From NCBI GenBank assembly GCA_000004985.1, contig GG738926.1: 64,000 bases of DNA. One strand, written 5' to 3'. The notes beneath the pieces were generated by a model, which saw only the letters and a list, made by a program, of their open reading frames with translations, ran no database searches and had not been told where the DNA came from. Shown here in pieces: positions 8,301 to 45,904 of this stretch; position 1 is the stretch's first letter; every line of letters begins with the position of its first letter. A program made the position numbers and the translations under genes. The DNA comes from Naegleria gruberi. Taxonomy: Eukaryota.

Positions 8301-10665
8301 CCACTTGTTCAAATATCTCAGTGCTTCCAACATTGACAAGGTTATTCAGGCCTTCAACTCTTTGAATGAATTTGTTCAGGGTCCTTGTGAACAGTCAATC
8401 CGTACTCTTTCATACTCATCAGGTTTATTTACAGTATTTAATGACATTGTTGAAAATGATATCATGATTGACAAGTCTTTACAAACTGAACCAACTGGAG
8501 CTTCTTTTGCAATGCATCAGTCACGTTCCACTTTCCTTCTCAAACATCAATCTATGGCTAATCAAAATGCTAATCTGAAAGCTGTAGAATTGGTGGATCA
8601 CATTACACTTAAGAAGGAAATGAACTTGTTAAAGACAGCCATTATCACACTTACAAGTATGTTGGAAGGAGGAAATAGATTGGCCAAGAGAATGGAAAGA
8701 AAATATCTCAACATCGAGCCTCTTATCGAACGTATGGAACAATGTGCTGATATGTGTATGCAAATGTCGTTCATTCAAAGTTTGATCATCAAAAGAAGAG
8801 AATTTAAAAAGTTTTCATCTGGAATTTTTGAACAATTCAGAGCTAACAAATCAAATATGGATCAAATGTTGTCATCAAAACTCAGCAAAGATTTTGGACA
8901 ACTACCAATAGAAAAGAAGCTCAAGTACTCAAATGATGTCAACCAGTATATCAGCAGGATGAAAGAATATGTTATTGAAGAATGTGAAGAGATAGGAACT
9001 AGTATTTACATACTTCTTAAATATTTAAATATTGAGATGGCAGATAGTTTTGAAGATGAGGACAGTGTTAGAAGAACTATAGTTTATCAATATTATCAAA
9101 GCTTGACAGGAAGTATCGAAATTATCCGTGATTCTAATATTGAAATTGTTAACTTTAAAAAGCCACACATGTGTCATAATTTATTGGAACAAACGAAGGA
9201 TGAGTTTGTACAACAATGTAATCGTGAAACAGCACAAACCAAAGTTGCAGATCTCTATGAATGGACCTATACTGTATTCTATACTGAAATGTTGCATTTA
9301 GAAAGGTATAGACAGAATGCAAATGGTTGGGAATCAAAAACTTGGAGATTTTTGGAAAATTACTGGAAGTATATGAAGAATTTATCCTTCCTTTTCTCTC
9401 TTTGTATTAATATTATTGTGCTCATATCTTTCCACAAGAAGTATGATGTATTCTCTGGAAATCTACCTATTCCTGGACAAAGTTATGGAGATAAAGGAAT
9501 TGATGGCATGATTATTACCCAAGGATTCAAGTGGTGGGGTGTTGGTATATTGGTTATTGTGTTAGGTATAATTCAGCTCATCACAACTCTATTACTGATA
9601 TTAATTTATTTGAGATTCTTCCTATTATTGAATGTGAAAAAGAAATTTGAACTAAAGAAAGGAGAAACATGGGAAGATGCTAAAACGAAGGATGACTTTA
9701 AGAAGAAGCTAATAATTAACATTCTCTCTGATAAGTACCTCTGGTGGTTGATTATTTACTTCTTGATTTCACTGATTGGTCTGTTTGTTACTCCACTGGT
9801 TTATTGTCTCCAGTTGTTTGAAGTAGTTACTTTGAGCCATGTTTTGCAAGATATTGTATTTTCAATTTTTGAAAACAGGAAGAAATTCTTCTTGTTCTCA
9901 ATCCTTACCATTTTCTCTCTGACTGCCTATGCTTTTACAGTATTTGCCTTCAAATGGGAGCAATGGATTATTGGCACAACGAATGCGTGTTCCAATACCA
10001 TACTGTGTTTTGCCACCACAATCAATTACAGTGTTAGAGCTGAAGCCTTCTTGGAAAATATTATGGACCCTCAACCGAATGACGTATTCAGATTCTTTAT
10101 GGATATTGTTTTCTACTTTATTGTAGTAGTTATTTTGTTGGATGTCTTGTTTGGTTTGATTTTGGACTCTTTCAGCGAACGTCGTGAAGCTCGTAACAAA
10201 TTGGAAAAGGAAAAGAAGGAGATTTGCTTTATTTGCCATAATGAAAAGAGTAGATTTGATATTCATGCCAATGAAGGTATCAACTTTGAAACTCACATTA
10301 TGAATGAGCATAACATGTGGAATTATGTCTATTTCCTCATTTACCTTTCCCAAAAACCACGTGATGAATATACTGGTACTGAGCAATATGTAGAATTGAA
10401 TGCAGCTAAATTATCATTCTTCCCAACCTTGAGAAGTAGAACTCTTGAATTGGTAGAAAGTGGATTATTGATGGAAGAAAAGTTACAACCTGACCATACA
10501 TCCTCCTCTGCTGATTCTGATGATGAGGATGAAAATGATTCTCATGACAACAGAGCAGATTTTGACATTTCTCAAACGCAATCAAAGAAGGGATCACTTA
10601 CAAAGATGAATGATGACTTTGAATCTATGATTAACAATAAGGATAGTTTGTTATTGTACATTTAA
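2332..10665 (+). CDS. iplA-like: Inositol 1,4,5-trisphosphate receptor-like Ca2+ release channel (IP3R/RyR family), single exon, 2777 aa
   Basis: Continuous 8.3-kb ORF. N-terminal ligand-binding/MIR-like region, long helical RIH-like central part, C-terminal multi-TM channel region followed by the family-specific CFICHNEKSRFD...FETHIMNEHNMWNYVYFLIYL motif (compare IP3R CFICGLERDKFD...EHNMWHYLCFIVL). Real ATG in aaaaaaATG context. Confidence 0.92.
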   Translation: MVIRTESSTSLSSVLHETSSTNGSVSNSTSSSASSSSFTNTSNTLRYGDIISLAIYFNPTIQSSQQQQQTISSSSFDKLNNSMMDILHDRNSTTTPSTPTSNSPFPSSPSAPTTTTTTTSLEQIVGFLSIKGLPGHTRCGLSVDESILKSFDNSLFMVCQGDTYTARKKFNKFQSHLQSLQNSNNNGAVNHVNSTNNLNASSYSFGSSFKNQQVNTNNKQQVMINNLNYQNQLNELKERMNREDQENTIEKERSWGKPILYGQRIQLYHIKSGMYLNVLRSNADLEKSSLKLSLSEGDRMCHFQFAPHFKFRTEGEPIRLTDKVIIMNEKTKHSVHISHYKYVRPIIVRDFDRYEVNASSHPGDNIWILRLYRSYLPMDQLFIKGGDTIRIVHRDLLGALYHPTPSIENTSATVVSTPTTSSDESCSLNLNGKYSSSSITTLFQIEGLDSSRGGIMYYATPCRFKHVSTGKYIAAKQVEVPDIEGNSGSLIGNSNNNTATTTGATNNTATSTNTVSAARSGWRNLRRRVKIKLKLVLTDNPRDEASVFYLYSSENSNQFTTSDPILGQSLLRIKHAQSNTWLRANDLSNKITFNNSNNNSNNLMELWFDLIQREKDVFSMEHVNNTFQINLIKEIYPILTNFDINSHYQRNDIDILLNALKLVIYLCTDSIQEDPLKREGSPHTEIQNHFKEMNIIDAIFTIIDLLDNNNNAIKMTSTPRDSSPMLRRSSMLTDNNETTVYSTRFNSILVQMCYRAIKQLAKQNIVNCTHVLNKYFTTMQDHLSRDVGGQEVSNALVEIIHNNMEVLEQIPSEKINHFFKLITTRQKKPLFVSFLSNLCRCGERPVTKNQKHLVMLLSEIDCRNVFYLPEYDDRDGKIYVYCNDVDSIESESQVAIDEGVTVIDETKKAERILLSELSSYNNQMFRILIEGLSLLSSLCVGRHLAGINYVSELLPLDLVMGVVENESYGIELRSAMCEILEYCFLDNTSTGEWPAINLSRPLDHGNAREGARNTQTSSNKKGQVEFVDYRNRFKSLRLFLIEFFQASKNYQLEAERTPLIYNLVKISYKCLIYRIFNPYGNDSDSLQLKAKLEPTNAPMSNSESFKLIVEGQDEYLYSMKEMEEFFSALLKTLDSTNDKGDRATMFDDIEQNLNTMKIKKKILDIFLYAMDLRIDYRISLIITAYNARNKILITENQLNEFIKKTIYQPVNFFQFDNDSSGSYKNFAFPLLILFKYQNREIPETALKLLQRSFNQAKELKENLQKVSILISQKSRKAYQLIYALFNRIQVLVSTSTFTGGDTSPDFTLFKDTCSQLGKLMKEIKGTKSAFRNLGGHELILKCLSTSYPQYIKDRLSLCCIELLTEFVRGDQKNQLELFREFRFLLEIMSNQLDTTELLTEIVRENDQILLSMIDPLLIKLYLEKIISVGAKSYHLNFLRILTCDSMGHSIPANQNEIINNLKEDYRSMIVLYNEEDSMKERERMIKNNDHLIIGSDLNYHINLLYLLRDCTRDKVGLAEGSVQAILPFSEMLSHLTDCYLIPPVRDPMMKLLTELYFITEKESTQDLSDVKIWKLFQKINVEISTWLQNDGCMRYPKEFEDAYYSKYPGTEIRTVSTNNTNQSNSDETNSEEVFKRAFFNGSDEEIFVNDIYIFKVLLPFIESFFEMVFNKDVKKMLLQKENKEEIKTIIYDLLNNITQIYLHCSSHREDVKRCHMSIQKIMITSDIDVDSKFKQLTKLALAKSSTAMMIKQESNKVMKQKYAVKNIEEDFLLKYKNFLEELEKKGFFKEKEQSDLPKFAQLLQSHIEEYLPRLVMVLKIMIENGVTREMQETFLDSISTIGAIVQQYNAKEDYNFSVQHSIPELVLFLICSSNNVFSKHGLELGISTLDGGNIENQQLYNRLLRSGNYENFFVSIKNKIKQSILEEKEMRKRGATKLTTELTSYAWEVLRFLQLLCEGHNLENQQMLQDQSSFNRMSIDLVSECIEYVIHLFKYLSASNIDKVIQAFNSLNEFVQGPCEQSIRTLSYSSGLFTVFNDIVENDIMIDKSLQTEPTGASFAMHQSRSTFLLKHQSMANQNANLKAVELVDHITLKKEMNLLKTAIITLTSMLEGGNRLAKRMERKYLNIEPLIERMEQCADMCMQMSFIQSLIIKRREFKKFSSGIFEQFRANKSNMDQMLSSKLSKDFGQLPIEKKLKYSNDVNQYISRMKEYVIEECEEIGTSIYILLKYLNIEMADSFEDEDSVRRTIVYQYYQSLTGSIEIIRDSNIEIVNFKKPHMCHNLLEQTKDEFVQQCNRETAQTKVADLYEWTYTVFYTEMLHLERYRQNANGWESKTWRFLENYWKYMKNLSFLFSLCINIIVLISFHKKYDVFSGNLPIPGQSYGDKGIDGMIITQGFKWWGVGILVIVLGIIQLITTLLLILIYLRFFLLLNVKKKFELKKGETWEDAKTKDDFKKKLIINILSDKYLWWLIIYFLISLIGLFVTPLVYCLQLFEVVTLSHVLQDIVFSIFENRKKFFLFSILTIFSLTAYAFTVFAFKWEQWIIGTTNACSNTILCFATTINYSVRAEAFLENIMDPQPNDVFRFFMDIVFYFIVVVILLDVLFGLILDSFSERREARNKLEKEKKEICFICHNEKSRFDIHANEGINFETHIMNEHNMWNYVYFLIYLSQKPRDEYTGTEQYVELNAAKLSFFPTLRSRTLELVESGLLMEEKLQPDHTSSSADSDDEDENDSHDNRADFDISQTQSKKGSLTKMNDDFESMINNKDSLLLYI

Positions 10666-11874: not shown

Positions 11875-13482
11875 TTATTGTGTTGATTTCTTCTTCTTTC
11901 TATTAAAACATGAACAGAATGGCCAATAGATAAATTCATAGACATCCAAAACTGATTTCATATTCAATAGATAGAGAGTAAGCAATAATAGGATCCATAT
12001 CAAAATGAGTTCTGATATGAATTCCAATGCCAAACTACCATCACCCATTGAAAAACTAGTTGACTCTGTGTTGAATTGAATATTCTCAACGGAAATCAAT
12101 ATGAGAAAGATGCACAAGACAATGAATGAAATTGTAATGAGCATTATAAATCTGGTAAATTTGAGAGATTTGAATGAATCAATCTTCTCCTGTGCATTCT
12201 TTGTTCTCGTCAAATCAAGGAATAATTTCATTCCAAATCCAAATATGGCCAAGCTCAAAACAATGAGGATTGTAATGAAGATGAGAAGAATGATACCAGT
12301 TCCCAACACTTCATTCAAACTAGAGGTGATAATATATGAAATTGCCACCGATAAGAAAAATCCCAATCCAACAAATAATAAAACTCTGAGTGGAATTAAG
12401 AGTTTTGGATCTGTGAGTTGTTTTCTCTTTTCACTGAATGCTAAATTGACCCACAGCAAGGTTACTACAAAGACACAAACAGTGATGAGGTAGTACACGA
12501 TGGCAATGATTAGTCTGGTTCTTTTAAAATCCTGAACTCCTAAAATTACTGCTCTAGCTATGGCATAGCCAATTATGGTGAGTGAAATCATAACTTTCAA
12601 AATTAAGGTAAAATGTTTTACAGAAAACCATGTAAATTCTGGATAAATATCAGAATCCTTTTCAATACCCATTGATCCCTCTTCACTGCCAGTCCACAAC
12701 GATCTAACATAGGTATTGAACTTGACAATTAAGTTTCTAATAACTTTGAATATTCTCAATTGAATAATAGAAGGAATAAGTGAAACTGTAATTGACACAA
12801 ATGCAACAATAAATGCCAAAATAACTACAATATAATGATAGGCATAAAAAGCTCGTTTCGAATGAATCAAATTACAATTAGTGGCCCACAAATTCTCCTC
12901 CTCGCAATAACACATAATAGTTGTGGTGTTTCCTCTATACGAATCTACAAAAGGACTACTTTTCGAATTGCCACACAATTGTGTTTGATCATAATCTGGA
13001 TTTTGAGCCATTATAATATCAATAGTTCTGTCCACTCCTCTACACTCTGAAACATTCCACATTTTCATTCGAAACTCATTACTCACCACATTACACAACA
13101 TGCAATATCTCTGAAAAACATAAGAAGGAAGGTCAAGACAAATTTCCTGACACGTTGTTTCGTTCCAATCGGGATGACCATTCCTTGCAGACTCACAAAA
13201 ATCATAAACTAAACTATCCATCACAACTTGTTGGTTATTTGGAAAGGGAACAATGTAGGAATCGGCTACAAGAATCTTGTTGAAACAAGGATAGGGAGTT
13301 GTGTTATTTTCACATGGCTCTTGGAAAATAAAGGGACTGTAATAGAGTGAATTATTATTGGCAGTTGAGTTGAGTGAAGTGTTGTAATAGAGTTGTTGTT
13401 CTTGTCCTAAACAATTATTAGAAACTGATGTGAATAAACAAAAAAGAAGGACAAGAAGAAGAATACCAAGGTTGTGAGACAT
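11875..13482 (-). CDS. 7TM receptor with N-terminal signal peptide and Cys-rich ectodomain (Frizzled/Smoothened-like, tentative), paralog A
   Basis: Signal peptide MSHNLGILLLVLLFCLFTSVS, about 190-aa ectodomain with at least 12 Cys (PCENNTTPYPCFNKI...), seven hydrophobic helices, short C tail. Strong paralogy to the next gene, including the identical NYCMLCNVVSNEFRMKMWNV block. Confidence 0.75.
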   Translation of the reverse strand: MSHNLGILLLVLLFCLFTSVSNNCLGQEQQLYYNTSLNSTANNNSLYYSPFIFQEPCENNTTPYPCFNKILVADSYIVPFPNNQQVVMDSLVYDFCESARNGHPDWNETTCQEICLDLPSYVFQRYCMLCNVVSNEFRMKMWNVSECRGVDRTIDIIMAQNPDYDQTQLCGNSKSSPFVDSYRGNTTTIMCYCEEENLWATNCNLIHSKRAFYAYHYIVVILAFIVAFVSITVSLIPSIIQLRIFKVIRNLIVKFNTYVRSLWTGSEEGSMGIEKDSDIYPEFTWFSVKHFTLILKVMISLTIIGYAIARAVILGVQDFKRTRLIIAIVYYLITVCVFVVTLLWVNLAFSEKRKQLTDPKLLIPLRVLLFVGLGFFLSVAISYIITSSLNEVLGTGIILLIFITILIVLSLAIFGFGMKLFLDLTRTKNAQEKIDSFKSLKFTRFIMLITISFIVLCIFLILISVENIQFNTESTSFSMGDGSLALEFISELILIWILLLLTLYLLNMKSVLDVYEFIYWPFCSCFNRKKKKSTQ

Positions 13483-14168: not shown

Positions 14169-15734
14169 TTAGTTACTCGCTACTTGTTGAGGTGTTTTCT
14201 TCTTTTTGAATAGACCTACAATAGGCCAATAGAGAAACTCATAGGTATCCATAGCAGAGTTATGATTATACAAGTAGAAAGTTATCAAAGTAAGCATCCA
14301 AATCATAACGAGTTCAATAACAAATTCTATTGCCAATCCCAAATCGCCTCGAATAAAATTCACACCAAAGTTTTCTAATGAAAATATTATCAATAGTACA
14401 CACAAAATGATAAATGACGTGGTAATGAGAACTATGAATCGTGTAAATTTCATTGAAACAAAGGAGTCAATGTTATCCTTTTTGACTCTTGTAACTTTGT
14501 AATAGAGAGTAAAACCTGCAATAATAATAGCCAATCCTAACACTATTAAAATAGACATGAAAACTAGCAAAATTGTTCCTGATCCAATATTCAATGCCAG
14601 TATTCTTGTAATGACATAAGCAGCTAAGACTAGAAACATGAAAATTAATCCCACAATATAAATCACTCTGAGAGGAATCAACAATTGATCTTCTGTTTTT
14701 TTCTTTAACTCTTTAACCATCAAATTAATCCATAAAATGCAAATTGTAAATGTACTAATTGTAATCAGGAAAAAGACTATTGCTAAAATTATTTTGTAAT
14801 TGCTGAAATCTTCCACTATGAATAAAGCTATTCTAGATGCAAAGTATCCAAAGGCAGTACATGGAATAAGTAGATTTAACATGAATATGAAATGCTTGAG
14901 AGAAAATGCTTGCTTGGGCAGGAAAATTTCAGAATCACTTAAAACCAATCTCTCGTCTCCCTTAAAGGCAACCCTAACTAAATTATTGAGTTTTTGATTT
15001 AAAACTCTCACCTTTTTGAATAGTCTCGACTGAATTAGGGTTGGCAAGAGAAGCACAGAAAAAGAGAACACAGAAATGAGGAATGATAGAATAATAATAA
15101 TGTAGTGATAGGAGAAATAAGCAAGCTTTGTGGAGAGGTAGCCACAATTGGATGCCCAATAATCCCCCTCCTCACAATAACAAATAGTAACTGTTTGTTG
15201 AATTAGATAGAGAAGTAAAAGAGAACTTTTCGAACTGCCACAAATTTGGGTTTGATCGTAATCTGATGATTTTGTCATGGCCATATCAATTCTTCGGTCA
15301 GGAGCTGGACACTCAGTAACATTCCACATCTTCATCCTAAATTCATTACTCACTACATTACACAACATGCAATAGTTTTGGAATGTTGGATTTGATGATT
15401 TAGTACAAAGCTCTGTGTAGCATTTTGTTGCATTCCAATTATTTCGTGTGGCATAATAGTGGCAAATATCAAATCCTCTTGGTCCAAACGAAACAAGTTT
15501 TTCATTTGGGAACAAAATAAAGCTTGAAAAGATGGTTATCTTGTTAAAACAAGGATAGGGTGTAGTGTTGTTTTCACACGGTTCCAAGAAAGCATTGGGA
15601 CTGTAGTAGAGAGGTTTGTTGTTTGCGGTTGTGTTGAGTGAAGTGTAATAGTAATAATTTTGTGATGATTGTACATTTGACATTAAAAGCAGTAAGAAGG
15701 CAACCACAACAATCATAACAAAGCAATTGAACAT
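14169..15734 (-). CDS. 7TM receptor with Cys-rich ectodomain, paralog B (tandem duplicate of 11875..13482)
   Basis: ORF 14169..15761 begins with a TTG in the track; the real ATG (MFNCFVMIVVVAFLLLL signal peptide) is at 15734. Same architecture and conserved blocks (EPCENNTTPYPCFNKI, NYCMLCNVVSNEFRMKMWNV) as paralog A. Confidence 0.75.
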   Translation of the reverse strand: MFNCFVMIVVVAFLLLLMSNVQSSQNYYYYTSLNTTANNKPLYYSPNAFLEPCENNTTPYPCFNKITIFSSFILFPNEKLVSFGPRGFDICHYYATRNNWNATKCYTELCTKSSNPTFQNYCMLCNVVSNEFRMKMWNVTECPAPDRRIDMAMTKSSDYDQTQICGSSKSSLLLLYLIQQTVTICYCEEGDYWASNCGYLSTKLAYFSYHYIIIILSFLISVFSFSVLLLPTLIQSRLFKKVRVLNQKLNNLVRVAFKGDERLVLSDSEIFLPKQAFSLKHFIFMLNLLIPCTAFGYFASRIALFIVEDFSNYKIILAIVFFLITISTFTICILWINLMVKELKKKTEDQLLIPLRVIYIVGLIFMFLVLAAYVITRILALNIGSGTILLVFMSILIVLGLAIIIAGFTLYYKVTRVKKDNIDSFVSMKFTRFIVLITTSFIILCVLLIIFSLENFGVNFIRGDLGLAIEFVIELVMIWMLTLITFYLYNHNSAMDTYEFLYWPIVGLFKKKKTPQQVASN

Positions 15735-15977
15735 GTTTTTTGATTTGTGAAAGCGTAACAATCATACACTCATATTATGAGCCCTTCTGTTGAAACGTTT
15801 TGCAGATCTACAAACAATTGTTTTGCCTTACCATAAATAGAAGGAACACTCAGAGATGTAACAGAGATGTAATATTACCTCTCTGAGAGGCATTTCCTTG
15901 AGTTCTTTAACAAGATGGGCTCTGATGAATATTAACCAAGTTGTCTGTTTTATCAATTACTGACTATCAATTGATAA

Positions 15978-17420: not shown

Positions 17421-18905
17421 CTATTCATCTTGTCTTATGCTAGCAATAGTCTTTTCAAATTCATCTTGCTCTCTTTGCTTTTTCTTTCTCATTTCGGTCT
17501 TGTACTTTCTTGCTCTGGATATATATTGTTCTCTACTGATTCTATCTGCTTGATGAGGGTTTGCAAAGATTCTGGCTATTGTCATTCCTGTTTGCAGTGG
17601 GATGTCTTTCATTAATTCATTACTCAACAGATTAATCTGTTTTGCATCATAGGTTACTCTTTCCTCTTGGCTCATAATCTTTTCCTTTTGTATTTTCTCT
17701 TCATTTAAAAAGTATGTCACTAAACCATCTCTAAGCTCAGCATCCCTGGCAGAAGAGATTTCCTCGTTTTGTTGAGATTGTGGTAAACTCTCTGCAGTTC
17801 CTCTGACTGTGTGTTGATCCTCTGGCAGTGATTTAAGGTATTCGTATTGTTCATAGCTCTTATTAAGATAGGATAAATCAACATTTCTTCTCCTTATTTC
17901 TCCTTTCAATCTTGCCATTTTCAATTTTTCCAAGTCAGGAAGAACTGGTTCAACGTAGTTCTTCCTTTCCTCCAGTGCATCTTTAACATACTCACTCGGT
18001 CTTAGCATATGTACGATATGTTTGTTATGAGAGTTGAGTGATGGATCAATGAATCTAAAGTCATTTTCTCTTCTTTCGTACGAGATGGATAACGTCTCCA
18101 GATCAATATTATTGTCTATATCATCAAATCCAAGTAATCTGAGAGTTGTCAAATACTCTCTTTTAATATGTGTCTCTCCTTGAGTTTTTCTCTTTGGAGC
18201 TCTTAAATAAAGTGGTCTCGTGTAAGGGTCATCAAAGTTGTTAGGTTCTGGTGAATGTGAATAAAGGAAATTTGTCCTCTGATTCAGAAAATGCTGATAG
18301 TCCTTGTCATTTTCGTCATCATCAAATGTAATGTACACTCTCTCGTTAAATTGAACTGATTTCCTTTCCTTTCCCCTGCTTTCGTCCGAGAGTGGTTCCT
18401 TAAGTATTGTTTTGTTACCTCTTTTTTGTTGTCCAAACTTTAGAGGAGAAAGTCTGTTCCCCCTTGAAGTTGGAGAATCAACAGAGTATTTGGAAGGTGA
18501 ATTATTAAATAAGGGACTTCTGGGATATTTTGGTGTAGCAACTTTTTTGAATACAGTCTTCTTTAGACCAGGATTCTTCTCGATGGTTATTGTTATGTTT
18601 TTCCTTGCATAAGGATTTCTATATACATATGTATCCTCATCCTTAGGAACATCAATTTTCAATTCCTTTGGAATTTTTGGTGGAGGTTGATGCTGCTCGG
18701 TAGAGGAATTTGTTGGATCAATGTTGACATTAAGAAACATCGACTTCCTTGGAGTCAATGTATCCCTTTTGGGTTCATCAAACATCCAATTTCTCTTCGT
18801 TGCTGTGCTGGAGTGGGCCAATCTCGGTGCAGTCTTTAAATCTGAATCTGCTGTTGAAGCCCTGGCCTGGCTTGTTTTTAAATATGGTCTTCTCTTACTG
18901 GTCAT
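17421..18905 (-). CDS. hypothetical basic low-complexity protein (494 aa)
   Basis: Complete ORF with real ATG, K/R/P/S-rich. No recognisable domain. Confidence 0.5.
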   Translation of the reverse strand: MTSKRRPYLKTSQARASTADSDLKTAPRLAHSSTATKRNWMFDEPKRDTLTPRKSMFLNVNIDPTNSSTEQHQPPPKIPKELKIDVPKDEDTYVYRNPYARKNITITIEKNPGLKKTVFKKVATPKYPRSPLFNNSPSKYSVDSPTSRGNRLSPLKFGQQKRGNKTILKEPLSDESRGKERKSVQFNERVYITFDDDENDKDYQHFLNQRTNFLYSHSPEPNNFDDPYTRPLYLRAPKRKTQGETHIKREYLTTLRLLGFDDIDNNIDLETLSISYERRENDFRFIDPSLNSHNKHIVHMLRPSEYVKDALEERKNYVEPVLPDLEKLKMARLKGEIRRRNVDLSYLNKSYEQYEYLKSLPEDQHTVRGTAESLPQSQQNEEISSARDAELRDGLVTYFLNEEKIQKEKIMSQEERVTYDAKQINLLSNELMKDIPLQTGMTIARIFANPHQADRISREQYISRARKYKTEMRKKKQREQDEFEKTIASIRQDE

Positions 18906-23839: not shown

Positions 23840-23913
23840 GCCGTCATAGCTCAGTTGGATAGAGCACAGGACTTCTAATCCTGGGGTCGTGGGTTCGAGC
23901 CCCATTGTCGGTA
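23840..23913 (+). tRNA. tRNA-Arg (anticodon UCU)
   Basis: Cloverleaf: acceptor GCCGTCA/TGTCGGT (one U-U mismatch at 5:68 and one G-U pair), D arm GCTC-AGTTGGATA-GAGC, anticodon stem CAGGA/TCCTG with loop CTTCTAA, T arm GTGGG-TTCGAGC-CCCAT, discriminator A. No intron. Confidence 0.85.
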
Positions 23914-24059: not shown

Positions 24060-26744
24060 TTATTCATCACTACTATAGCTACTATCACTAGTATCACTAT
24101 CAGATGAGTAGCTCGATTCCAATGTTTCTATTTTTCTAATAACTCTCTGAGCTTGAATTTTAACAGAGATAGGGAACTGATCTAGATGTCTCAGAATAAA
24201 TAAAACATTTGTAAAATCATGATCTTCAACATCCAGTGAATCGGTATCAAACAAGTATTCTACAAACTCAAAAATACAGCCAAAGATGAGAAATTGCTTT
24301 TCCTTTGGAACTGTAGCTTTGAAGGGATAGACTAAAAGGTTTGGCAGAAAGTCATATAGACTAATTGCAAAGCTACGATTTCTTGTTAATAATAATATAG
24401 CAATCAATACCTCCTCGAATAGGTCAATGTTTGATAATTTCATCAATGCCAAATGAGCAGTTTCAAAATGTTCATCAGTTACATGAGAGAGTAATTGCTC
24501 TCCTCCATTTTGTACAATTTCATTGAGAATGATTGAACTCAAAGCCGAAGCGGAAAGCTGTAAACTCTGAACAATACTTGGAAATGATGGGATAATGAGT
24601 GATAAATGGGTGAGCAGGGCTTCTGATGGAATGGATGCCTCAATAAGTTCGTTAAACAAGTAATCATAGAGAAAATCCTTCTTTTCTTCTGATTGAATTT
24701 CATTCACATCAAATGGACAATGAATCAATAATCCCTTCTCGTAAAGATTTTCAATTAGGACAGCTAATGATCCAATATCAGCTAGTGTATTGCTCATAGC
24801 AGTATCTACTTTCTTTTTTGAAATTACAATTCTAATGAACTTGGTAAGGAATGGATAAAAATCAAACTGTTCAAAAACTCTCGACAATGCGTTTAGATCT
24901 GTTTCTTTGATTATTTTGGCCATGGCTTTGGTGGTTGATAATATTAATTCGTCATTTAGCTTAAACTCATCTTTCTCAAATATTTCCTCAGTCTTTTTCT
25001 TAATAACCAAAAGAATCTTTTCAAATTTAATATTATCATTAATAAATCCAAATAATGTCTCAATCATGTCAAAGCATTCTATAACATTTTCTTTGTGTGT
25101 TTCTAATTTTTCTTCATCACTTAAATCTTGCATATCTTTCAAGTATTCGATTGTGTCGCTCATTATTATGGTTTCAAACAGATTGCTGATAAGCTGTCTA
25201 AATCTCTCCAACATTGAACCGTTCATATTATTGACATCAAAGCAGCAACTAACATTTTCCAGCATTTCACAATATTCCTTGATATTTGTGATATTGGCTT
25301 GGCCAGCATTGATTATTGTTCCCAGTAAATCATCAGAGCACTTCTCTTTTTCGAGGAAGTAACGGGCAATAGTCCTATTAGCAGAACTTCTGATGATTCT
25401 ATTGCTAGAGAATAAAGAATTTTTCCATATTTCTAAAATGCAAGAAATCATCTGTTTAAACTCTTCTGGTATTTCTTCCAACTTGTCCACATCAAGGCAT
25501 ACAGCAGGTAATGAAATGATATTAGCTGACTCTCTCAAAAGTCCTTCGTATTGTGTTTTAATTTCGTTTCTCTTCAAGTTTTCAATTATTAAATCTTTAA
25601 ATTGTAGAAGTACTGAAACACGTAAGAGAATATCATGCCTAATTATCAGTTCATCCTGGTCTTCGTACTCCTTTTCCATCAATACAAATCCAAGAGTGTT
25701 CATTATTTTGCCTTTAACAATGTACACATGATCTCCAAAGTTTTCAGATTGTTCGTTCGTAATATTCGAAGCTTCCATATCCTTAACTTCTTCGTAATCT
25801 TTCTTCATTAAGGAAAACAAATGACTCCACCTTGTGTCGTCAGTATTTGCTAGTTTTGCAAGAGTTAACATTTTCGTTGCATCTACTTTTAAATCCTCTG
25901 TATCATCCTCCAAGCTTAGCCCAGTAAGTTTATAAATTAATTCAATGTAAATTGGAATACAGTTTAAAATTTTTGATCTTAATTCATCCAATTCATCGAT
26001 TTCAATTGAAAAGATATCTTTAAGGAATGGAGGCCAAAACGAAATATTAGAACCCATTAAAGGTTGGTTCTCTTGTTTCCAATTTTGGTCATTGTTTTCC
26101 TTCAAATACTTGACCTTCTTTTCCTTCATATATTTCAACGTAGTCAGCATTACAAAACATGAATTGTAATATTTTTCCATATCCGAAATAGGTAAATATC
26201 GATAACTGAAAATGTCAACTTGTAATTTAGTATATAAATGTAAAACAATTTTCTGCCAAGCCTCCAAAATTCCAATTCCAGTTTCGAATTGTCTCACCTG
26301 TCCATTATATGCCTCCTTTTTCAATTTCTTGGCACAATCAAACACTTCCTTCAATACATTCTCTTCAACATAATAAAGAAATGGAACAAAAGCCTCTGAT
26401 CTAATTCTTGTCATTGTCTCACGTGAAACTATAAAGTAATGATAAATCATCAGCATGGTCTTGATACAAATTACATCTTCGTCATCATGATCCCGCTCAT
26501 CAAATACAAATAATTTAGAACCAGTATAATATGATAAATCATCATCAAAATCAAAATGACTTGACAATATTTTGTTAGTTTCTTTATGACGGTCTTTCCA
26601 GAAAATGGAAACTAGTGAATAATTAGTTCGGACAATCATCTTTACTTCATCAAAATTTCTACGTAAATCATTCAAAGAGTCAAGTTTTCTACATTCCGAC
26701 ATGTAGTCCTCTTGAATGAACGGAAAAATTCCATCTTTAATCAT
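24060..26744 (-). CDS. large helical hypothetical protein (894 aa)
   Basis: Complete ORF with real ATG in aaaaaaaaATG context. C-terminal acidic Ser/Asp tail. No recognisable catalytic motif. Confidence 0.55.
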   Translation of the reverse strand: MIKDGIFPFIQEDYMSECRKLDSLNDLRRNFDEVKMIVRTNYSLVSIFWKDRHKETNKILSSHFDFDDDLSYYTGSKLFVFDERDHDDEDVICIKTMLMIYHYFIVSRETMTRIRSEAFVPFLYYVEENVLKEVFDCAKKLKKEAYNGQVRQFETGIGILEAWQKIVLHLYTKLQVDIFSYRYLPISDMEKYYNSCFVMLTTLKYMKEKKVKYLKENNDQNWKQENQPLMGSNISFWPPFLKDIFSIEIDELDELRSKILNCIPIYIELIYKLTGLSLEDDTEDLKVDATKMLTLAKLANTDDTRWSHLFSLMKKDYEEVKDMEASNITNEQSENFGDHVYIVKGKIMNTLGFVLMEKEYEDQDELIIRHDILLRVSVLLQFKDLIIENLKRNEIKTQYEGLLRESANIISLPAVCLDVDKLEEIPEEFKQMISCILEIWKNSLFSSNRIIRSSANRTIARYFLEKEKCSDDLLGTIINAGQANITNIKEYCEMLENVSCCFDVNNMNGSMLERFRQLISNLFETIIMSDTIEYLKDMQDLSDEEKLETHKENVIECFDMIETLFGFINDNIKFEKILLVIKKKTEEIFEKDEFKLNDELILSTTKAMAKIIKETDLNALSRVFEQFDFYPFLTKFIRIVISKKKVDTAMSNTLADIGSLAVLIENLYEKGLLIHCPFDVNEIQSEEKKDFLYDYLFNELIEASIPSEALLTHLSLIIPSFPSIVQSLQLSASALSSIILNEIVQNGGEQLLSHVTDEHFETAHLALMKLSNIDLFEEVLIAILLLTRNRSFAISLYDFLPNLLVYPFKATVPKEKQFLIFGCIFEFVEYLFDTDSLDVEDHDFTNVLFILRHLDQFPISVKIQAQRVIRKIETLESSYSSDSDTSDSSYSSDE

Positions 26745-30019: not shown

Positions 30020-30857
30020 TAAATGAGTAAAAATCTTTCTCAATCATCTTACAGAAACTTGTATTAGAAATTGACCATTAATAATTTAATAATAGAATAC
30101 AAATTTATAACAGAAACTGATTATTGTAACTTTAATAGATATTTTAGTTGGATGGACCAAAAACAGCTGTTGTAAAATTTTATCACATGATGGAAAGTCC
30201 GAAAATGGGCTGTGAAAAAAAACCATTGTAAACAACATAGACGGTTGACAGAATGACAACTTATTTAAAAAAAAATTAAAAAAAAAGAAAATGTATCACC
30301 ACTTCTTGACTCAGCACTTTGAAACTTGTAGAACTACACTTCTTCCCATCAACAAACCTGTGTTCAATTATTGGTACCAATACCTATTTGACTATACACC
30401 AATATACCAATAATTACAGTGTTGAGTAGAATTGTTCCTTCTCACACCATTACCCAAGTTGTTGGTGCACCATTAAAGCTGTAATAGAGATGAATATTGG
30501 CTCCCACACTTGAAAGCAATTTTTAAATTGCACAAAGTTTGTGAGATTTGCACACCACCAACAGTGATATGAGCACAATCACGATTGATGATTTGACTTG
30601 AAAAAATGGAGATTCTATAAATGGTTGAATTGGGCGAAAATTAAGAAATTGTAATCAGTAACACTATAAGTTGAGAAAATCACGTCCCTGGATGGTGATT
30701 GCGTGAGTGACATTAAAATAATCGATGATTACTTCAGTGATGTCACAGCCCCATTAAGCTTTCATTTACTAAATTGATTGTGGAATGGAAACTCAATGGC
30801 ACCTTGTGGATTTTAAATAGATTGTTTGTTTAAACTAAAGCTTAAAAAAACAACAGA

Positions 30858-31302
30858 AATGAAAATTGCAGAGATTTTAAATTATATCCAACATTCACAC
30901 AGGTATAATCATGATGATATTAATTATTTGTGCGGGTACTTTGCCATTGTGCAAGACGGAAAGAGGGGAATAGATATTTCTGCAACCAATATTCGTGCGT
31001 TTCTCGACACACTTCTCAAGACCCCAAAAGGTGAAGTTACAAAACTATTTTGGTACGGAAACTATGGCGGCCCAGGTACCAACTCAACACTGCTTCCAAT
31101 AGATGCTCTTGATGCAGCATGTCTATTTCATGATAAATACTTGCCAAAAGATAGGTTTCAAGACCTTACAAAATTTATTAGACGTCATTTCGGTGCACAA
31201 AATTGCTCAACAGACGCAAATTGGTATATCGATAGAATCAATGGTTTATTTTTTAGTTACGTAGAACCTGTTTATATGAATTGGTTTGTGTCAAAGAGCT
31301 AA
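30858..31302 (+). CDS. phospholipase A2-like protein with parvovirus-type motif set (YxGPG...P.D..DAA..HDxxY)
   Basis: WYGNYGGPGTNSTLLPIDALDAACLFHDKYL matches the Ca-loop and HD catalytic dyad of group XIII / parvoviral-VP1u-like PLA2. Real ATG at 30858 (track start 30826 is TTG). Confidence 0.45.
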
Positions 31303-41176: not shown

Positions 41177-44011
41177 TTAGATGGATTGGGTGTGAGATTT
41201 ACCATGCTTTGACATTAATTGAGCAATTAAGGAGACTCTTTTTGGGATACTGTAACTCCAAAATTCTTTTATACCTTCCAATAGCCTCTCTCGTTCATAA
41301 TTATCTTGACAATAATCCCAAATGAAAACTAGATAGAATTTGAGTTTTGAGAACCTCTTATCGATGTTATCGACAAATGATTTCTTTAGAAGGTTCTTTG
41401 TGAGACCTTCTGAATTTTCCACTTGTTTGCATTCCATGAATAATTCTATTGATTCTTCACATAATGTTCCAAAGTATTCTAATGATTCATTAAATAATTT
41501 TATGCCATCTACGCAAATTGTGTGTTGGGCACTGATATTTTGCTTGTCATATTTGAAGAATTCTGAAAGTTCCTTTCCCCAGTTCTCGTTAATTCTCAAC
41601 AAATCGAAACAGAATCTCTTGTTGGAATTGGCATTATTGGTGTGAAAATTGATATTCACAATCTCAGTTAAACTTAAAATTTGAGGACTAATCATTTGGA
41701 ATAGTTTGAATGAAGTATTGTACTGATCAGTGACAACTAAACCTTCACATTGTAGAGGATGTAAGTGCCTTCTTAGCATGGTTCTCAAATTATCTTCTAA
41801 TTCTCTTACGTCCAATACGAAAGTTTCCTGTCTATTTCCAAATAGTTCATTGAATTTTTCGTTGAGCACATTTGGTGTTGGAATATTAATGTCCTTGGAA
41901 ATTGCAAAGATATTTTCTGACTTGATACTGTTACCTGAATTCATGAAGGAATAACTTCCGTGAAGAAAGAGTTTAGTCTGATCGTATTGTACAGGTTGAA
42001 ACTTTAAACTCTTCAATAATTTTTCTTGTTCACTTCTTGTTTGGTTGTGGCTTACAATGCACAACTCGAAAACATAACATTGATTCTCTTTGAAATCTAT
42101 TTTTCCATTTTGTTTTTCTAAAGTTTTCCAAAAAAGGTCAGTAATAAATTTTTGCTCCATCTCTTCCTCATCACCAATGCCTCCAATTGATTGAGAAGTT
42201 TCACTGAATAGAGAGTCAATTCTCTTGTAGACCCCCAAGTTCCAGTTCAAATCTTTGGTGAAACGTTGCTTTTTTTGAACATCTGGACTGAATACCATCC
42301 AATCCATCTTTCCTGTGCCTTCATTCATGTAAGAAAAGACTATTATGGCTATTCCATTCAATTTCTCCATAATTAATGTACCTTTAGAGAAATCCAAGTC
42401 TGTGCTTCCTACAATCAAATCGTTGTCAAGGCCGTCATCAATAAACAAATTGAACATTGGTCTGTGATTTAGTGCTACAATTTCATACTGGTCATTTTCC
42501 AATTTCTTCAAGACAATACTCTCAAAGTATTGGCAAACATTGATCTCATTATTCATGGCCTTTGATACTTGGGTTGGATCATTCTTGGCAATTAAATACT
42601 CTTCCGTTGTGGTATATTGTACCCAGATTGGTGAGTGCTGTTTGTCAGCAACACAAAATACAAGCTCTGTACTTCCGTTTTTGTAATGATGAAGAGAAAA
42701 TGAAAAATCTCTCTTGAGAGCTTCAATGCCTTTCTTCTCAATATATTTCAAAACTTGTGAGAAATCTCTGGTTGGAGTTTCAACTTGAGAGTACTTGTCA
42801 TAATTGGAATGAATGTGAACCTTCTTTTTGCTTCTGTTTCCTCTGATAGATTTTGAACTGCTTACATTTTTTCTAACCACCAATTTATCGCTTGAGTCAT
42901 TATTCTCAGAGTAGAGGTTAGAATTAATGTATGTAAAGTGGAAAAGATAGTGCATTTCTTCACTTATTCTATCCTTGTAGTGGACTTCCAATATTTCATA
43001 CGTCTTGCTTCTCAATAGGTTCTTTTCAAAATTGGTTTCAATCAAGAGCTTTAATCTTGAAAGCATATCCAAGTAAACCTTGTTTTCTGAAATTTCAATC
43101 TCACTGTTGACTATTTCTAATAATTTCTCTGTAGATTCGTCAGCCATCTCCTCAATTTTTTTTACAATGGTACTGAATGGTTTCAATATAAACTCCCACT
43201 CTTCATTAGCAAATGAAAAGTTAATCAAGAGTTTGTCTACCTTTGTTTTTCCTTCAATAATATCTATAATTTCAGAGTTTGATCTTTCGTGTAAATCAAG
43301 CATGTCTCTTGACAGGCCCAAAAATCTAGCTGCATGAAGGAGATTCTTTGCTCCTTTTCTAAAATCACCATCGTTATTCCACAATCTTTTAGATTTTGCT
43401 ACGTGGTGTGAAATATCAGTGAGTGTGGCACTCTTAAACTTGACCAAATTGAATCCACCAATACCATCCATCTCATCCTTATTGTCTGAATAGTTGTCGT
43501 GCAATCTCAATGGATAGTAGAATTTCCTTACCAAGTCCACCTCTTCTTTCCATACATATTCACCTCTGTCACTGAATGGCATTTTCAAATAACACAACAT
43601 AATCACCCAAATATATTGTTCCTTCAACAAGTTTAGAAAATAATCCATATGATATATATTCACATTGATATTCTCAATACTATCATCTTTACATTTCAAA
43701 TCTCCCTCTATCAACATTGATCCATCAAAATAATACTTTTCCGATTTAATAATCATGATAAAATCATAATCAGAGGTAGAATCCTGACAATCACACGTTC
43801 TATACAACTTTGATCCGAACAAGTACAAATTCAAAATATCTTCTCTCTGTATCGTGAATATTGTATTACGAGTAGTAATCATCACGGAATCCACCAACTT
43901 GCTCTGCAAAATACCATCATTCAGAGTTTGTACCTGTGCAGTCGCATAGGCTGGATTATGTTGATTCTCCAAAACAAAGTTCATCACATCCGTAAGATTA
44001 AATTTAGTCAT
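41177..44011 (-). CDS. large protein (944 aa) with N-terminal Pol-beta-superfamily nucleotidyltransferase motif, family unassigned
   Basis: LYLFGSKLYRTCDCQDSTSDYDFIMII matches hG[GS]x9-13[S]DhDhhh of minimal NTases/TUTases/OAS-cGAS. The downstream 800 aa have no recognisable motifs. Confidence 0.6.
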   Translation of the reverse strand: MTKFNLTDVMNFVLENQHNPAYATAQVQTLNDGILQSKLVDSVMITTRNTIFTIQREDILNLYLFGSKLYRTCDCQDSTSDYDFIMIIKSEKYYFDGSMLIEGDLKCKDDSIENINVNIYHMDYFLNLLKEQYIWVIMLCYLKMPFSDRGEYVWKEEVDLVRKFYYPLRLHDNYSDNKDEMDGIGGFNLVKFKSATLTDISHHVAKSKRLWNNDGDFRKGAKNLLHAARFLGLSRDMLDLHERSNSEIIDIIEGKTKVDKLLINFSFANEEWEFILKPFSTIVKKIEEMADESTEKLLEIVNSEIEISENKVYLDMLSRLKLLIETNFEKNLLRSKTYEILEVHYKDRISEEMHYLFHFTYINSNLYSENNDSSDKLVVRKNVSSSKSIRGNRSKKKVHIHSNYDKYSQVETPTRDFSQVLKYIEKKGIEALKRDFSFSLHHYKNGSTELVFCVADKQHSPIWVQYTTTEEYLIAKNDPTQVSKAMNNEINVCQYFESIVLKKLENDQYEIVALNHRPMFNLFIDDGLDNDLIVGSTDLDFSKGTLIMEKLNGIAIIVFSYMNEGTGKMDWMVFSPDVQKKQRFTKDLNWNLGVYKRIDSLFSETSQSIGGIGDEEEMEQKFITDLFWKTLEKQNGKIDFKENQCYVFELCIVSHNQTRSEQEKLLKSLKFQPVQYDQTKLFLHGSYSFMNSGNSIKSENIFAISKDINIPTPNVLNEKFNELFGNRQETFVLDVRELEDNLRTMLRRHLHPLQCEGLVVTDQYNTSFKLFQMISPQILSLTEIVNINFHTNNANSNKRFCFDLLRINENWGKELSEFFKYDKQNISAQHTICVDGIKLFNESLEYFGTLCEESIELFMECKQVENSEGLTKNLLKKSFVDNIDKRFSKLKFYLVFIWDYCQDNYERERLLEGIKEFWSYSIPKRVSLIAQLMSKHGKSHTQSI

Positions 44012-44188: not shown

Positions 44189-45904
44189 ATGACTCAACAT
44201 GATACGGTAAAAGTTTTGCTGATTGATTTTTTAGATCAGCGAATAGAAACTCAACAATTTCTCCGATGCAAATTCCAACAGCAACAATTAGGAAGAATGA
44301 AATATTTGAAAAGAAGAGAGGAAAATTTGAGGAATTGTAAAGATTGGTTTCCCATTGAATTTGCAAAAGATAAATATTTTGTCATCAACCAAAAGTCCAT
44401 TGCAAGGGCAAAGATCTTTCGTCTACTTTCGGATGAATTAAAGAATGATAACGATGTTATTATTAGCTGCTACTCATATTTCGTTCATTTCAGTGATTAT
44501 TACAATGTTTTGATGAATTTATTGAAATCTAAAGAATTAGCTGAAGAATTTTTGAAACGAAACAAAGTTAGCAATTTTAATTTTGATCCACAAACGTGGA
44601 AAAATACAGAACTTTGTAAAATGTATTTAAGAAATTTGAAATATCCCAGGTCGAATGTTAGGCAATTTGATGATGAATTTATAGTGGAAGCTTCATGGTT
44701 CAATGTTTCTTATTTTAGACATGGATCAGTAGAATTGAGACGAAATAGAGAGGTGGTGCTGAAACTTTGTAAACATAACGGAATGGTGATTCAATATGTT
44801 AATGCAAAATTGAGATTTGATAGAGAAATAATATTGGAAACTCTGAAAAATTGTCCTTCAGCCATTGAGTTTATTCCAAATGAATTGAAATTCGAAAGAG
44901 ATTTAATTAATCAAGTATTTATTCATCACTATAGTGATGAGATCAACCTTGAGGATTTATCAGATGATATTGTATGGTTACGGACCTATTTGAAACTCTT
45001 TGGAATTAATAATATTCCAAGAACATGGTCAAGGAAATATTCGAATAACAAAGAGCTCATGATGGAATATATCAAAGAGAATGGAGATTATTTGAAATTC
45101 GTCTCTATGGAACTGAAAAATGATAAGGAATTAGTTTTGCAAGCTGTGAAAAATTCAGGCCTTGCCATTTACTATGCCTCTGAAGAATTGAAGCGAGATA
45201 GGGAAATAGTTTTGGAGGCAGTTAAGCAGGATGGTACTGCTTACAATTATGTGGCTCCTCATTTCTCTTCTGATAAGGAAATTATCTCATTGGCTCTTTG
45301 CAGAGATTCGAATTTTTTCAATCTTGCATCTGAAAGTTTGAAAAATGATTATGAATTTGTGATGGATATAGTATCAACAAGAGGAATGATATTGAAATTT
45401 CTACCAGAAACACTAATGAATAACAGGACAATTAATTTGGCAGCTATTTTAAATAATGGAAGAGTTATTGAATTTTCTCCTTTCAAACATGATCCAGAAA
45501 TATTGAATCAGGTGGTTAAAGTAGTTCCTTATTATTACTTGAGATTTGTAGATTTATCAATGTTTTCGGATGAAACCTTGATTGAGGCAGTAAGATTTTC
45601 TGAAGATCCTTTTTTAATCACCAAAAGAGCTAACTATTTGGATTTGCTACAACGATCTATTGAATACAATGTGCGTTTGGCATCTTCATTTCCATATGAA
45701 CATTTGACTGAACAACTGGTGTTGAAATTCATTAGAATGGATGGTTCTGTAATCGAATATCATAATATTAAGCGATTCATTCATTCAGACAAATCAAAAT
45801 ATTTCATCGAAGCTGTCAAATCAAATGGATTCTTCACTGAATTCGATCAGGAATTGTATCGACTGAGATTGAGTGAAGAATATCACGGAGCTATCATGCA
45901 CTAA
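44189..45904 (+). CDS. DUF4116-like repeat protein (571 aa)
   Basis: Tandem units of about 38 aa of the form ELKNDKELVLQAVKNSGLAIYYASEELKRDREIVLEAVKQDGTAYNYVAPHF. Confidence 0.55.
   Translation: MTQHDTVKVLLIDFLDQRIETQQFLRCKFQQQQLGRMKYLKRREENLRNCKDWFPIEFAKDKYFVINQKSIARAKIFRLLSDELKNDNDVIISCYSYFVHFSDYYNVLMNLLKSKELAEEFLKRNKVSNFNFDPQTWKNTELCKMYLRNLKYPRSNVRQFDDEFIVEASWFNVSYFRHGSVELRRNREVVLKLCKHNGMVIQYVNAKLRFDREIILETLKNCPSAIEFIPNELKFERDLINQVFIHHYSDEINLEDLSDDIVWLRTYLKLFGINNIPRTWSRKYSNNKELMMEYIKENGDYLKFVSMELKNDKELVLQAVKNSGLAIYYASEELKRDREIVLEAVKQDGTAYNYVAPHFSSDKEIISLALCRDSNFFNLASESLKNDYEFVMDIVSTRGMILKFLPETLMNNRTINLAAILNNGRVIEFSPFKHDPEILNQVVKVVPYYYLRFVDLSMFSDETLIEAVRFSEDPFLITKRANYLDLLQRSIEYNVRLASSFPYEHLTEQLVLKFIRMDGSVIEYHNIKRFIHSDKSKYFIEAVKSNGFFTEFDQELYRLRLSEEYHGAIMH

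Follow-up and report, generated by a model that had tools for sequence, protein, structure and literature searches.

Does the eukaryote Naegleria gruberi carry a phospholipase A2 (PLA2) of an unfamiliar kind, and if so, where do the relatives of that protein lie? The question is raised by NAEGRDRAFT_75583, a small protein encoded on the + strand of a 64,000-nucleotide stretch of contig GG738926.1 (assembly GCA_000004985.1), referred to here as the window. A preliminary description, made from the sequence alone, had pointed to a parvovirus-type set of PLA2 motifs at this locus. Further analysis indicates that NAEGRDRAFT_75583 is very probably a divergent member of the His/Asp-Ca2+ ("secreted") PLA2 superfamily. 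The nearest relatives of its family's catalytic core, judged by sequence, are PLA2 modules of bacteria.

Homology to phospholipases A2

Taken singly, the protein scores 15.9 bits with PF08398, the parvoviral PLA2 family (cut-off 23.9; E 0.016), and 15.4 bits with PF00068, the classical one (cut-off 32.1; E 0.027). The preliminary description had looked to a profile match above threshold, and the single sequence gives none. No other Pfam family was reported: at E≤10 there was no match to the families of group XII (PLA2G12) or group XIV (PF09056). NCBIfam likewise gave no match, and PHROGs gave one weak match, to phrog_11353, a family without assigned function (E 0.0023), over the same motif region. 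The nine top single-sequence matches in the PDB are all PLA2s aligned on the motif (best E 0.063).

Profiles return longer lists. A profile built from protist sequences alone has 154 PDB matches at E≤1 (best 9.9e-8); all among the 60 listed are of PLA2 type, and the matched region runs from the tail of the N-terminal helix through the Ca2+ loop and the active-site helix. A profile of 88 sequences, from bacteria to protists, has 58 PDB matches at E<1e-3, every one a PLA2 or a PLA2-homologous toxin chain, with the rice secreted PLA2 (sPLA2) first. In the first alignment, each of the 12 members matches PF00068 at E≤1, and 11 also match PF08398. The hhalign probability is 93% for bovine PLA2 and 82% for the VP1u region of adeno-associated virus 2 (AAV2). 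Residues invariant in the 88 sequences are G67, G71, P72, P80, D82, D85, C88, H91, and D92. The profile matches to PLA2 structures, together with these invariant motif residues, make homology to the PLA2 superfamily well supported. Within the window, the motif (searched as a regular expression) occurs once in the six-frame translation, and the family hidden Markov model (HMM) finds no second match.

A structural model adds a little. Modelled by AF2 without an alignment, the protein gave a mean confidence (pLDDT) of 42 and an unusable model; the model considered here used the 88-sequence alignment (pLDDT 86.8; pTM 0.84). Its helices are given below, and the irregular segment between them, residues 53-82, holds the Ca2+ loop. 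A loop followed by two antiparallel core helices, as in the PLA2 fold, is thus predicted for NAEGRDRAFT_75583. Foldseek comparison of the model with the PDB and BFVD found nothing at E<1. The predicted fold agrees with the sequence evidence; by itself it is weak.

The motif reads W65-YGNYGGPGTNSTLLPIDALDAACLFHDKYL-P96, and the protein can be divided as follows:

30859..31023, + strand: N-terminal extension of about 55 residues, with three predicted helices (residues 3-12, 18-32, and 42-52)
31054..31080, + strand: equivalent of the Ca2+-binding loop, Y66-G-N-Y69-G70-G71-P72-G73-T74, placed by alignments to solved PLA2s
31096..31134, + strand: active-site helix, P80-I-D82-A-L84-D85-A-A-C88-L-F-H91-D92, placed by alignments and by the model helix 83-93
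31135..31143, + strand: K93-Y94-L95, read directly from the sequence and from alignments
31147..31287, + strand: C-terminal helical half, with predicted helices at residues 97-111, 118-127, and 130-143

The N-terminal extension is conserved in the protist family only, with I30 nearly invariant; bacterial relatives have in its place a signal peptide or an RHS core and shell. Its last helix, together with the following TPKG, aligns with the end of the classical sPLA2 N-terminal helix, so that profile positions 53-66 fall on sPLA2 residues 9-24. The loop, in turn, aligns to sPLA2 Y25-G26-C27-Y28-C29-G30-x-G32-G33. The backbone Ca2+ ligand positions (Y69, G71, and G73) are all present, and Asn and Gly70 stand in for C27 and C29. 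Y69 is conserved in at least 90% of sequences, beside the invariant loop residues G67, G71, and P72. At the G32 position NAEGRDRAFT_75583 retains G73; several homologs have Leu or Phe.

The active-site helix aligns to sPLA2 P37...D39..D42..C45..H48-D49, making H91 the putative general base and D92 a putative Ca2+ ligand (nucleotides 31129-31134, catgat). With loop and dyad together, all first-shell residues that the PLA2 mechanism requires are present. Beyond this dyad, Tyr94 occupies the position of Cys51 and Leu95 that of Tyr52; Leu95 is common to all Naegleria-type members. Hence the motif set of the preliminary description stands in part: YGNYGGPG, P.D, DAA, and HD are all there, but HD..Y is not literally present, since in HDKY the Tyr lies at His+3 and Leu95 at His+4.

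In the C-terminal half, R108 and D119 are at least 90% conserved in the 88 sequences, and A120, Y123, and F132 hardly vary within the protist family. The final helix is rich in aromatic residues: FFSYVEPVYMNWF. When the protein is aligned without gaps to the bacterial family, P96, R108, and D119 stay conserved at 90% or more; in the same register, the bacterial C-N (equivalent to C98-D99) falls on K105-F106. Residue 106 is hydrophobic in all Naegleria-type members (Phe, Leu, or Ile). Candidate partners for His91, if it has one, are D102, D119 (at least 90% conserved), and N128.

The protein contains three Cys residues (C25, C88, and C116). Among the classical disulfide positions, the C45 equivalent (C88) alone is kept, and its partner C29 is Gly70. 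The N. lovaniensis homolog has one Cys in its whole length, so no disulfide is possible there. The hydropathy maximum is only 0.74 (Kyte-Doolittle, 19-residue window), and thus there is no signal peptide and no transmembrane segment. The absence of a disulfide-rich scaffold and of a signal peptide, both asserted in the preliminary description, is borne out.

Who else has such a protein? A phmmer scan of 1.84 billion representative proteins found 14 at E<1e-3. They include the N. gruberi paralog XP_002681422 (NAEGRDRAFT_57031; E 1.6e-17); N. lovaniensis XP_044550398 (E 3.5e-15); several environmental proteins, one with a eukaryote-like Q/P-rich N-terminus and some ending in a transmembrane segment; and three bacterial signal-peptide proteins. 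Two entries of the full scan, P0009 and P0012, were discarded as spurious, being repetitive proteins that lack the motif. The word-index homolog search under-reports this family: the single query retrieved itself only, and the protist alignment retrieved six proteins and missed P0002-P0005, which are in the collection. Four relatives (P0002, P0006, P0008, and P0011) have a C-terminal hydrophobic segment of 19-21 residues (Kyte-Doolittle 2.6-3.1) and no signal peptide, and hence a tail-anchored signature. The Naegleria proteins end just before this position, after the aromatic-rich helix, and have no membrane anchor.

The gene for P0006 lies at 10001-10468, within positions 1-12544 of L001, a 21.9-kb contig of 40% GC from Logan SRR30000139. 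Its reading frames are dense and mostly without Pfam matches; a SET domain, a PF11397 GlcNAc-transferase, and an ankyrin protein are present. This contig may come from a compact protist genome or from a giant virus, between which its gene content does not separate.

Bacterial relatives of the catalytic core

The protist family HMM gives 40-49 bits to bacterial RHS modules and Methylobacterium proteins, 31 to bovine pancreatic PLA2, and 15 to AAV2 VP1u. Over a 31-residue core, 20 of the 31 positions are identical between NAEGRDRAFT_75583 and Methylobacterium, which is as close as to the protist homologs. This likeness of the core to bacterial modules suggests an old transfer from bacteria.

The bacterial relatives come in two forms. 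A scan of metagenomes for the loop pattern found 34 loci, most of them at the very C-terminal end of RHS/YD-repeat polymorphic toxins, which reach 2,432 residues. There, PWYGNYCGPGNN..PID.LDAAC..HD.CY...CD..LC comes immediately after the RHS end motif (...YYYRARYYDP..GRF...DP.G). An alignment-based word search retrieved the second form, about 750 small signal-peptide proteins with a PLA2 core; among the 120 listed, the named proteins are almost all from Methylobacterium or Methylorubrum, and their core reads HGNYCGPGNNAPLAPIDALDAACARHDACT. UniRef labels several of the Methylobacterium proteins "Phospholipase A2 domain-containing protein". We found no characterised example of these bacterial PLA2 modules in the literature searched.

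Some details of these sets may be recorded here. The metagenome loci are L002-L035 (for example, L019, match 4111-4191; L025, match 8001-8087; and L030, match 4954-5082). One RHS module scores 23.9 bits with PF08398 (cut-off 23.9) and 31.1 with PF00068 (cut-off 32.1); a second scores 16.5 and 25.5. The signal-peptide set includes P0016, P0020, P0032, P0068, P0105, and P0111, and several of its proteins are called "tRNA(fMet)-specific endonuclease VapC" in JGI, which looks like an annotation error. In L005, positions 62-457 hold a PLA2-like reading frame of 131 residues, counted from an internal GTG and clipped where the contig starts. It contains HDKAY, has a hydrophobic tail, and exceeds the PF08398 threshold, at 31.8 bits; small lipoprotein-like reading frames adjoin it, and the context is apparently bacterial, not viral.

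The bacterial modules share with NAEGRDRAFT_75583 the core pattern [YH]GNY[CG]GP...P[IV]D.LD.AC..HD, a short connection between the two core helices, and the absence of a beta-wing. They differ in much else. The bacterial forms are exported, through a signal peptide or an RHS delivery shell, whereas NAEGRDRAFT_75583 is a stand-alone, signal-less protein without RHS repeats. They keep 4-9 Cys, including the equivalents of C29-C45 and C51-C98 (NYC-GP...AAC; HDxC...xC-N/D), pairs that are lost in the Naegleria protein. In RHS modules the equivalents of Tyr52 and Asp99 are retained as well, in HDxCY and C-D; the Naegleria protein has neither. It adds the 55-residue helical extension, and its C-terminal helices differ. 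Bacterial polymorphic toxins carry their Cys-rich domain after an RHS/YD core and a PxxxxDPxGL cleavage motif; this layout is absent here, and the catalytic core alone is shared.

A PLA2 domain has been described before as the C-terminal toxin of RHS and filamentous polymorphic toxins, under the name Tox-PLA2 (Zhang, Aravind et al. 2012; PMC3482391). The Tox-PLA2 entry in that paper's table includes heterolobosea in its phyletic pattern. The signature given in that entry (DxC[ST], CxxHxxxYxN; PDB 1kp4) belongs to the group XIV fold of Streptomyces and fungi (PMC3482391), whereas NAEGRDRAFT_75583 has no PF09056-type match, as noted above.

Classical sPLA2s are more distant in architecture. Those of groups I/II/V/X (PF00068) and the plant group XI (rice, 2wg7) contain 12-14 Cys, against three in NAEGRDRAFT_75583. 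They have a signal peptide, 5-8 disulfides, and a beta-wing; the Naegleria protein lacks all three.

Catalysis, location, and origin

We lean toward reading NAEGRDRAFT_75583 as a His/Ca2+ PLA2 of bacterial-toxin ancestry that works inside the cell, a reading that its sequence makes probable rather than secure. The carboxylate of D92, together with backbone carbonyls at Y69, G71, and G73, would coordinate Ca2+. His91 would activate a water molecule to attack the sn-2 ester of a glycerophospholipid, yielding a free fatty acid and a lysophospholipid. A hydrophobic pair, Leu95 and Phe106, would take the place of the polar Tyr52/Asp99 network. The Naegleria lineage would have lost the signal peptide and the structural disulfides, and gained the helical N-terminal extension of about 55 residues. 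The enzyme, soluble or peripheral, would act at an internal membrane, on its cytosolic side, and Ca2+ transients might gate it.

Several observations weigh against this reading. Neither the single sequence nor the family consensus (17.7 bits with PF08398; 15.7 with PF00068) reaches a Pfam gathering threshold. Likeness to solved PLA2s is limited to about 35-50 residues. No Asp99 equivalent was located, the bacterial C-N falling on K105-F106. Finally, enzymes of the sPLA2 type normally require Ca2+ at near-millimolar levels, more than the cytosol provides.

Is the protein a hydrolase at all? With Leu95 at the Tyr52 position, K105-F106 at the bacterial C-N position (residue 106 hydrophobic throughout the Naegleria-type members), Leu or Phe in place of G32 in several homologs, and little Ca2+ at a cytosolic location, it might instead be a catalytically weak or dead protein of the PLA2 fold: a membrane- or lipid-binding factor, possibly binding Ca2+ or lipid without hydrolysing it. 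We regard this as unlikely. Across the 88 sequences, from bacteria to protists, H91, D92, and the loop glycines do not vary, which is unexpected after loss of catalysis and therefore argues that catalysis has been retained. NAEGRDRAFT_75583 itself keeps G73, and active plant sPLA2s also lack Tyr52 (HDHCV in the alignment). Moreover, bovine PLA2 mutants (Y52F/Y73F/D99N) remain substantially active, and AAV2 is active despite having Phe at the position of G32. Actual PLA2 activity of NAEGRDRAFT_75583 therefore seems, from its sequence, slightly favoured.

Where would such an enzyme act? The lack of a signal peptide, the lack of disulfides, and the tail-anchored relatives together make action at the cytosolic face the most likely arrangement and classical secretion unlikely; for an intracellular site as such, the sequence evidence stands about evenly balanced. 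The nearest kin are bacterial toxin modules and secreted proteins, and phospholipase A activity has been reported in Naegleria culture medium (PMC10513453). Both facts would suit an active PLA2 that leaves the cell by a non-classical route (vesicles or lysosomal exocytosis) to attack prey bacteria or host membranes, and so carries on the toxin role of its bacterial kin. Such a lytic factor is improbable, however: the protein lacks a signal peptide and any hydrophobic segment; loss of all disulfides fits a reducing compartment; the relatives are tail-anchored, so that the domain faces the cytosol; and N. gruberi is non-pathogenic.

The preliminary description had called the motif set parvovirus-type and group XIII-like. 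Its assignment to the PLA2s stands, and by a small margin PF08398 is indeed the Pfam model that fits the Naegleria members best (15.9 bits for NAEGRDRAFT_75583, 20.3 for the paralog, and 22.6 for the N. lovaniensis protein; cut-off 23.9). There is also a real likeness to parvoviral VP1u, which is disulfide-free and has a Y-x-G-P-(G/F) loop, a D-A-A-x-x-x-H-D helix, and a short helical core. NAEGRDRAFT_75583 has this loop (Y-G-G-P-G), and the Gly-Pro that is invariant in its family (Y-x-G-P-G/F/L) matches YLGPF of AAV2 VP1u as well as the Y.GPG pattern that the preliminary description had called characteristic of parvoviral VP1u. A few densovirus VP1 fragments appear among the BFVD fold matches, at non-significant E-values of 2.6-5.7. 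The family HMM nonetheless ranks AAV2 VP1u, at 15 bits, below bovine PLA2 and well below the bacterial modules, and on this count the viral relationship is not the closest. VP1u is a region of a capsid protein and has HDxxY; the Naegleria protein stands alone, has Leu in place of that Tyr (H91-D-K-Y-L95), and falls below the gathering threshold, and the N- and C-terminal helices of the protist proteins have no viral counterpart. An IMG/VR scan found no match, no viral fold match is significant, and no capsid or NS1 remnant lies near the gene; an endogenous parvoviral element was accordingly rejected. Descent from a parvovirus, whether as an endogenised VP1u fragment or as a direct relative of the parvoviral (group XIII) enzyme, is thus very improbable.

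Least credible is a chance motif in a spurious reading frame, or bacterial contamination of the assembly: the single-sequence Pfam E-values are only 0.016 and 0.027, but conserved homologs occur in two species of Naegleria and in eukaryote-like contigs from the environment, the profile reaches E 1e-7 against PLA2 structures, and the gene matches its eukaryotic neighbours in composition, as described below.

What would a captured intracellular PLA2 add to current views? Enzymes of the sPLA2 fold are seen as extracellular or luminal, locked by disulfides, and dependent on millimolar Ca2+; parvoviral VP1u is the textbook exception. The catalytic core of NAEGRDRAFT_75583 is familiar, and the variant lies outside the current Pfam family boundaries. 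The set of features is unusual: a cellular, signal-less, disulfide-free protein with an extra N-terminal helical domain, no Tyr52/Asp99 network, and tail-anchored relatives. Such a cellular, Cys-poor family would widen the known settings of the PLA2 catalytic core, and its origin, if correctly read, would be another case in which a eukaryote that feeds on bacteria has domesticated a bacterial toxin domain. More tentatively, the Naegleria protein and its relatives may constitute an unrecognised PLA2 group: bacterial-toxin modules that would have been captured, become disulfide-free, and moved to the cytosolic side, with the hydrophobic pair and possibly Ca2+ gating. An equally tentative proposal is that some protists have tail-anchored members of this group and Naegleria has soluble or peripheral ones.

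The gene has so far been overlooked. Its database name is "predicted protein", and with Pfam scores below threshold it is invisible to routine annotation; the preliminary description was right to call it an unusual cellular protein, and it is unannotated in databases. In the literature searched, no paper concerned the gene or protein identifiers, and none linked sPLA2-type genes to Naegleria. Phospholipase A activities, described in the 1980s, have long been discussed as cytolytic factors of Naegleria, and a 2023 review says that no phospholipase A gene of N. fowleri has been characterised (PMC10513453). The present family supplies candidate genes for that activity; if active, NAEGRDRAFT_75583 would be the first gene-level candidate of sPLA2 type. 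General interest is modest, and would be higher were activity and a cytosolic site demonstrated.

The gene and its surroundings

NAEGRDRAFT_75583 is a complete, single-exon open reading frame (ORF) on the + strand, from the ATG at 30859 to the TAA at 31300-31302. Since the same frame contains a TAA at 30814-30816, the ATG at 30859, the first after it, is the earliest possible start. The preliminary description had set the gene at 30858-31302 with a product of 148 residues; the ORF is real, but the start is one nucleotide off (the frame from 30858 has 12 stops) and the product has 147 residues. It is identical over all 147 residues to N. gruberi XP_002669453.1 (EFC36709.1; D2W2G8), from a scaffold of 175 kb.

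The ORF has a GC content of 0.363, and of 0.304 at third codon positions (GC3), both in line with adjacent genes. It is a stand-alone cellular gene between an F-box and a DnaJ gene. The neighbouring genes are ordinary eukaryotic ones: besides these two, there are a glutaminyl-tRNA synthetase (GlnRS) with the eukaryotic N-terminal domain, a TPH-domain protein, an IP3R/RyR-like channel, a formin, a RabGAP, and BCS1. Composition and flanking genes together exclude contamination and a spurious ORF. The NAEGRDRAFT_75583 ORF is intact and native to Naegleria nuclear DNA.

Five long ORFs of the window (493-943 residues), all on the - strand, have no Pfam match: 24060-26744 at E≤1e-3, and 41177-44011, 11875-13482, 14169-15761, and 17421-18905 at E≤1e-5. 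They are lineage-specific Naegleria proteins without assigned function. The channel gene, at 2332-10665 (+), is an uninterrupted ORF of 2,777 residues with the IP3-receptor/ryanodine-receptor domains Ins145_P3_rec, MIR, RIH, and RIH_assoc. It encodes a homolog of intracellular Ca2+-release channels; about 20 kb separate it from the PLA2-like gene, and a functional link between the two is not implied. The sole tRNA gene of the window, tRNA-Arg(TCT), is at 23840-23913 (+), and a 571-residue protein encoded at 44189-45904 (+) is made of at least six DUF4116 repeats (E 2.7e-85).

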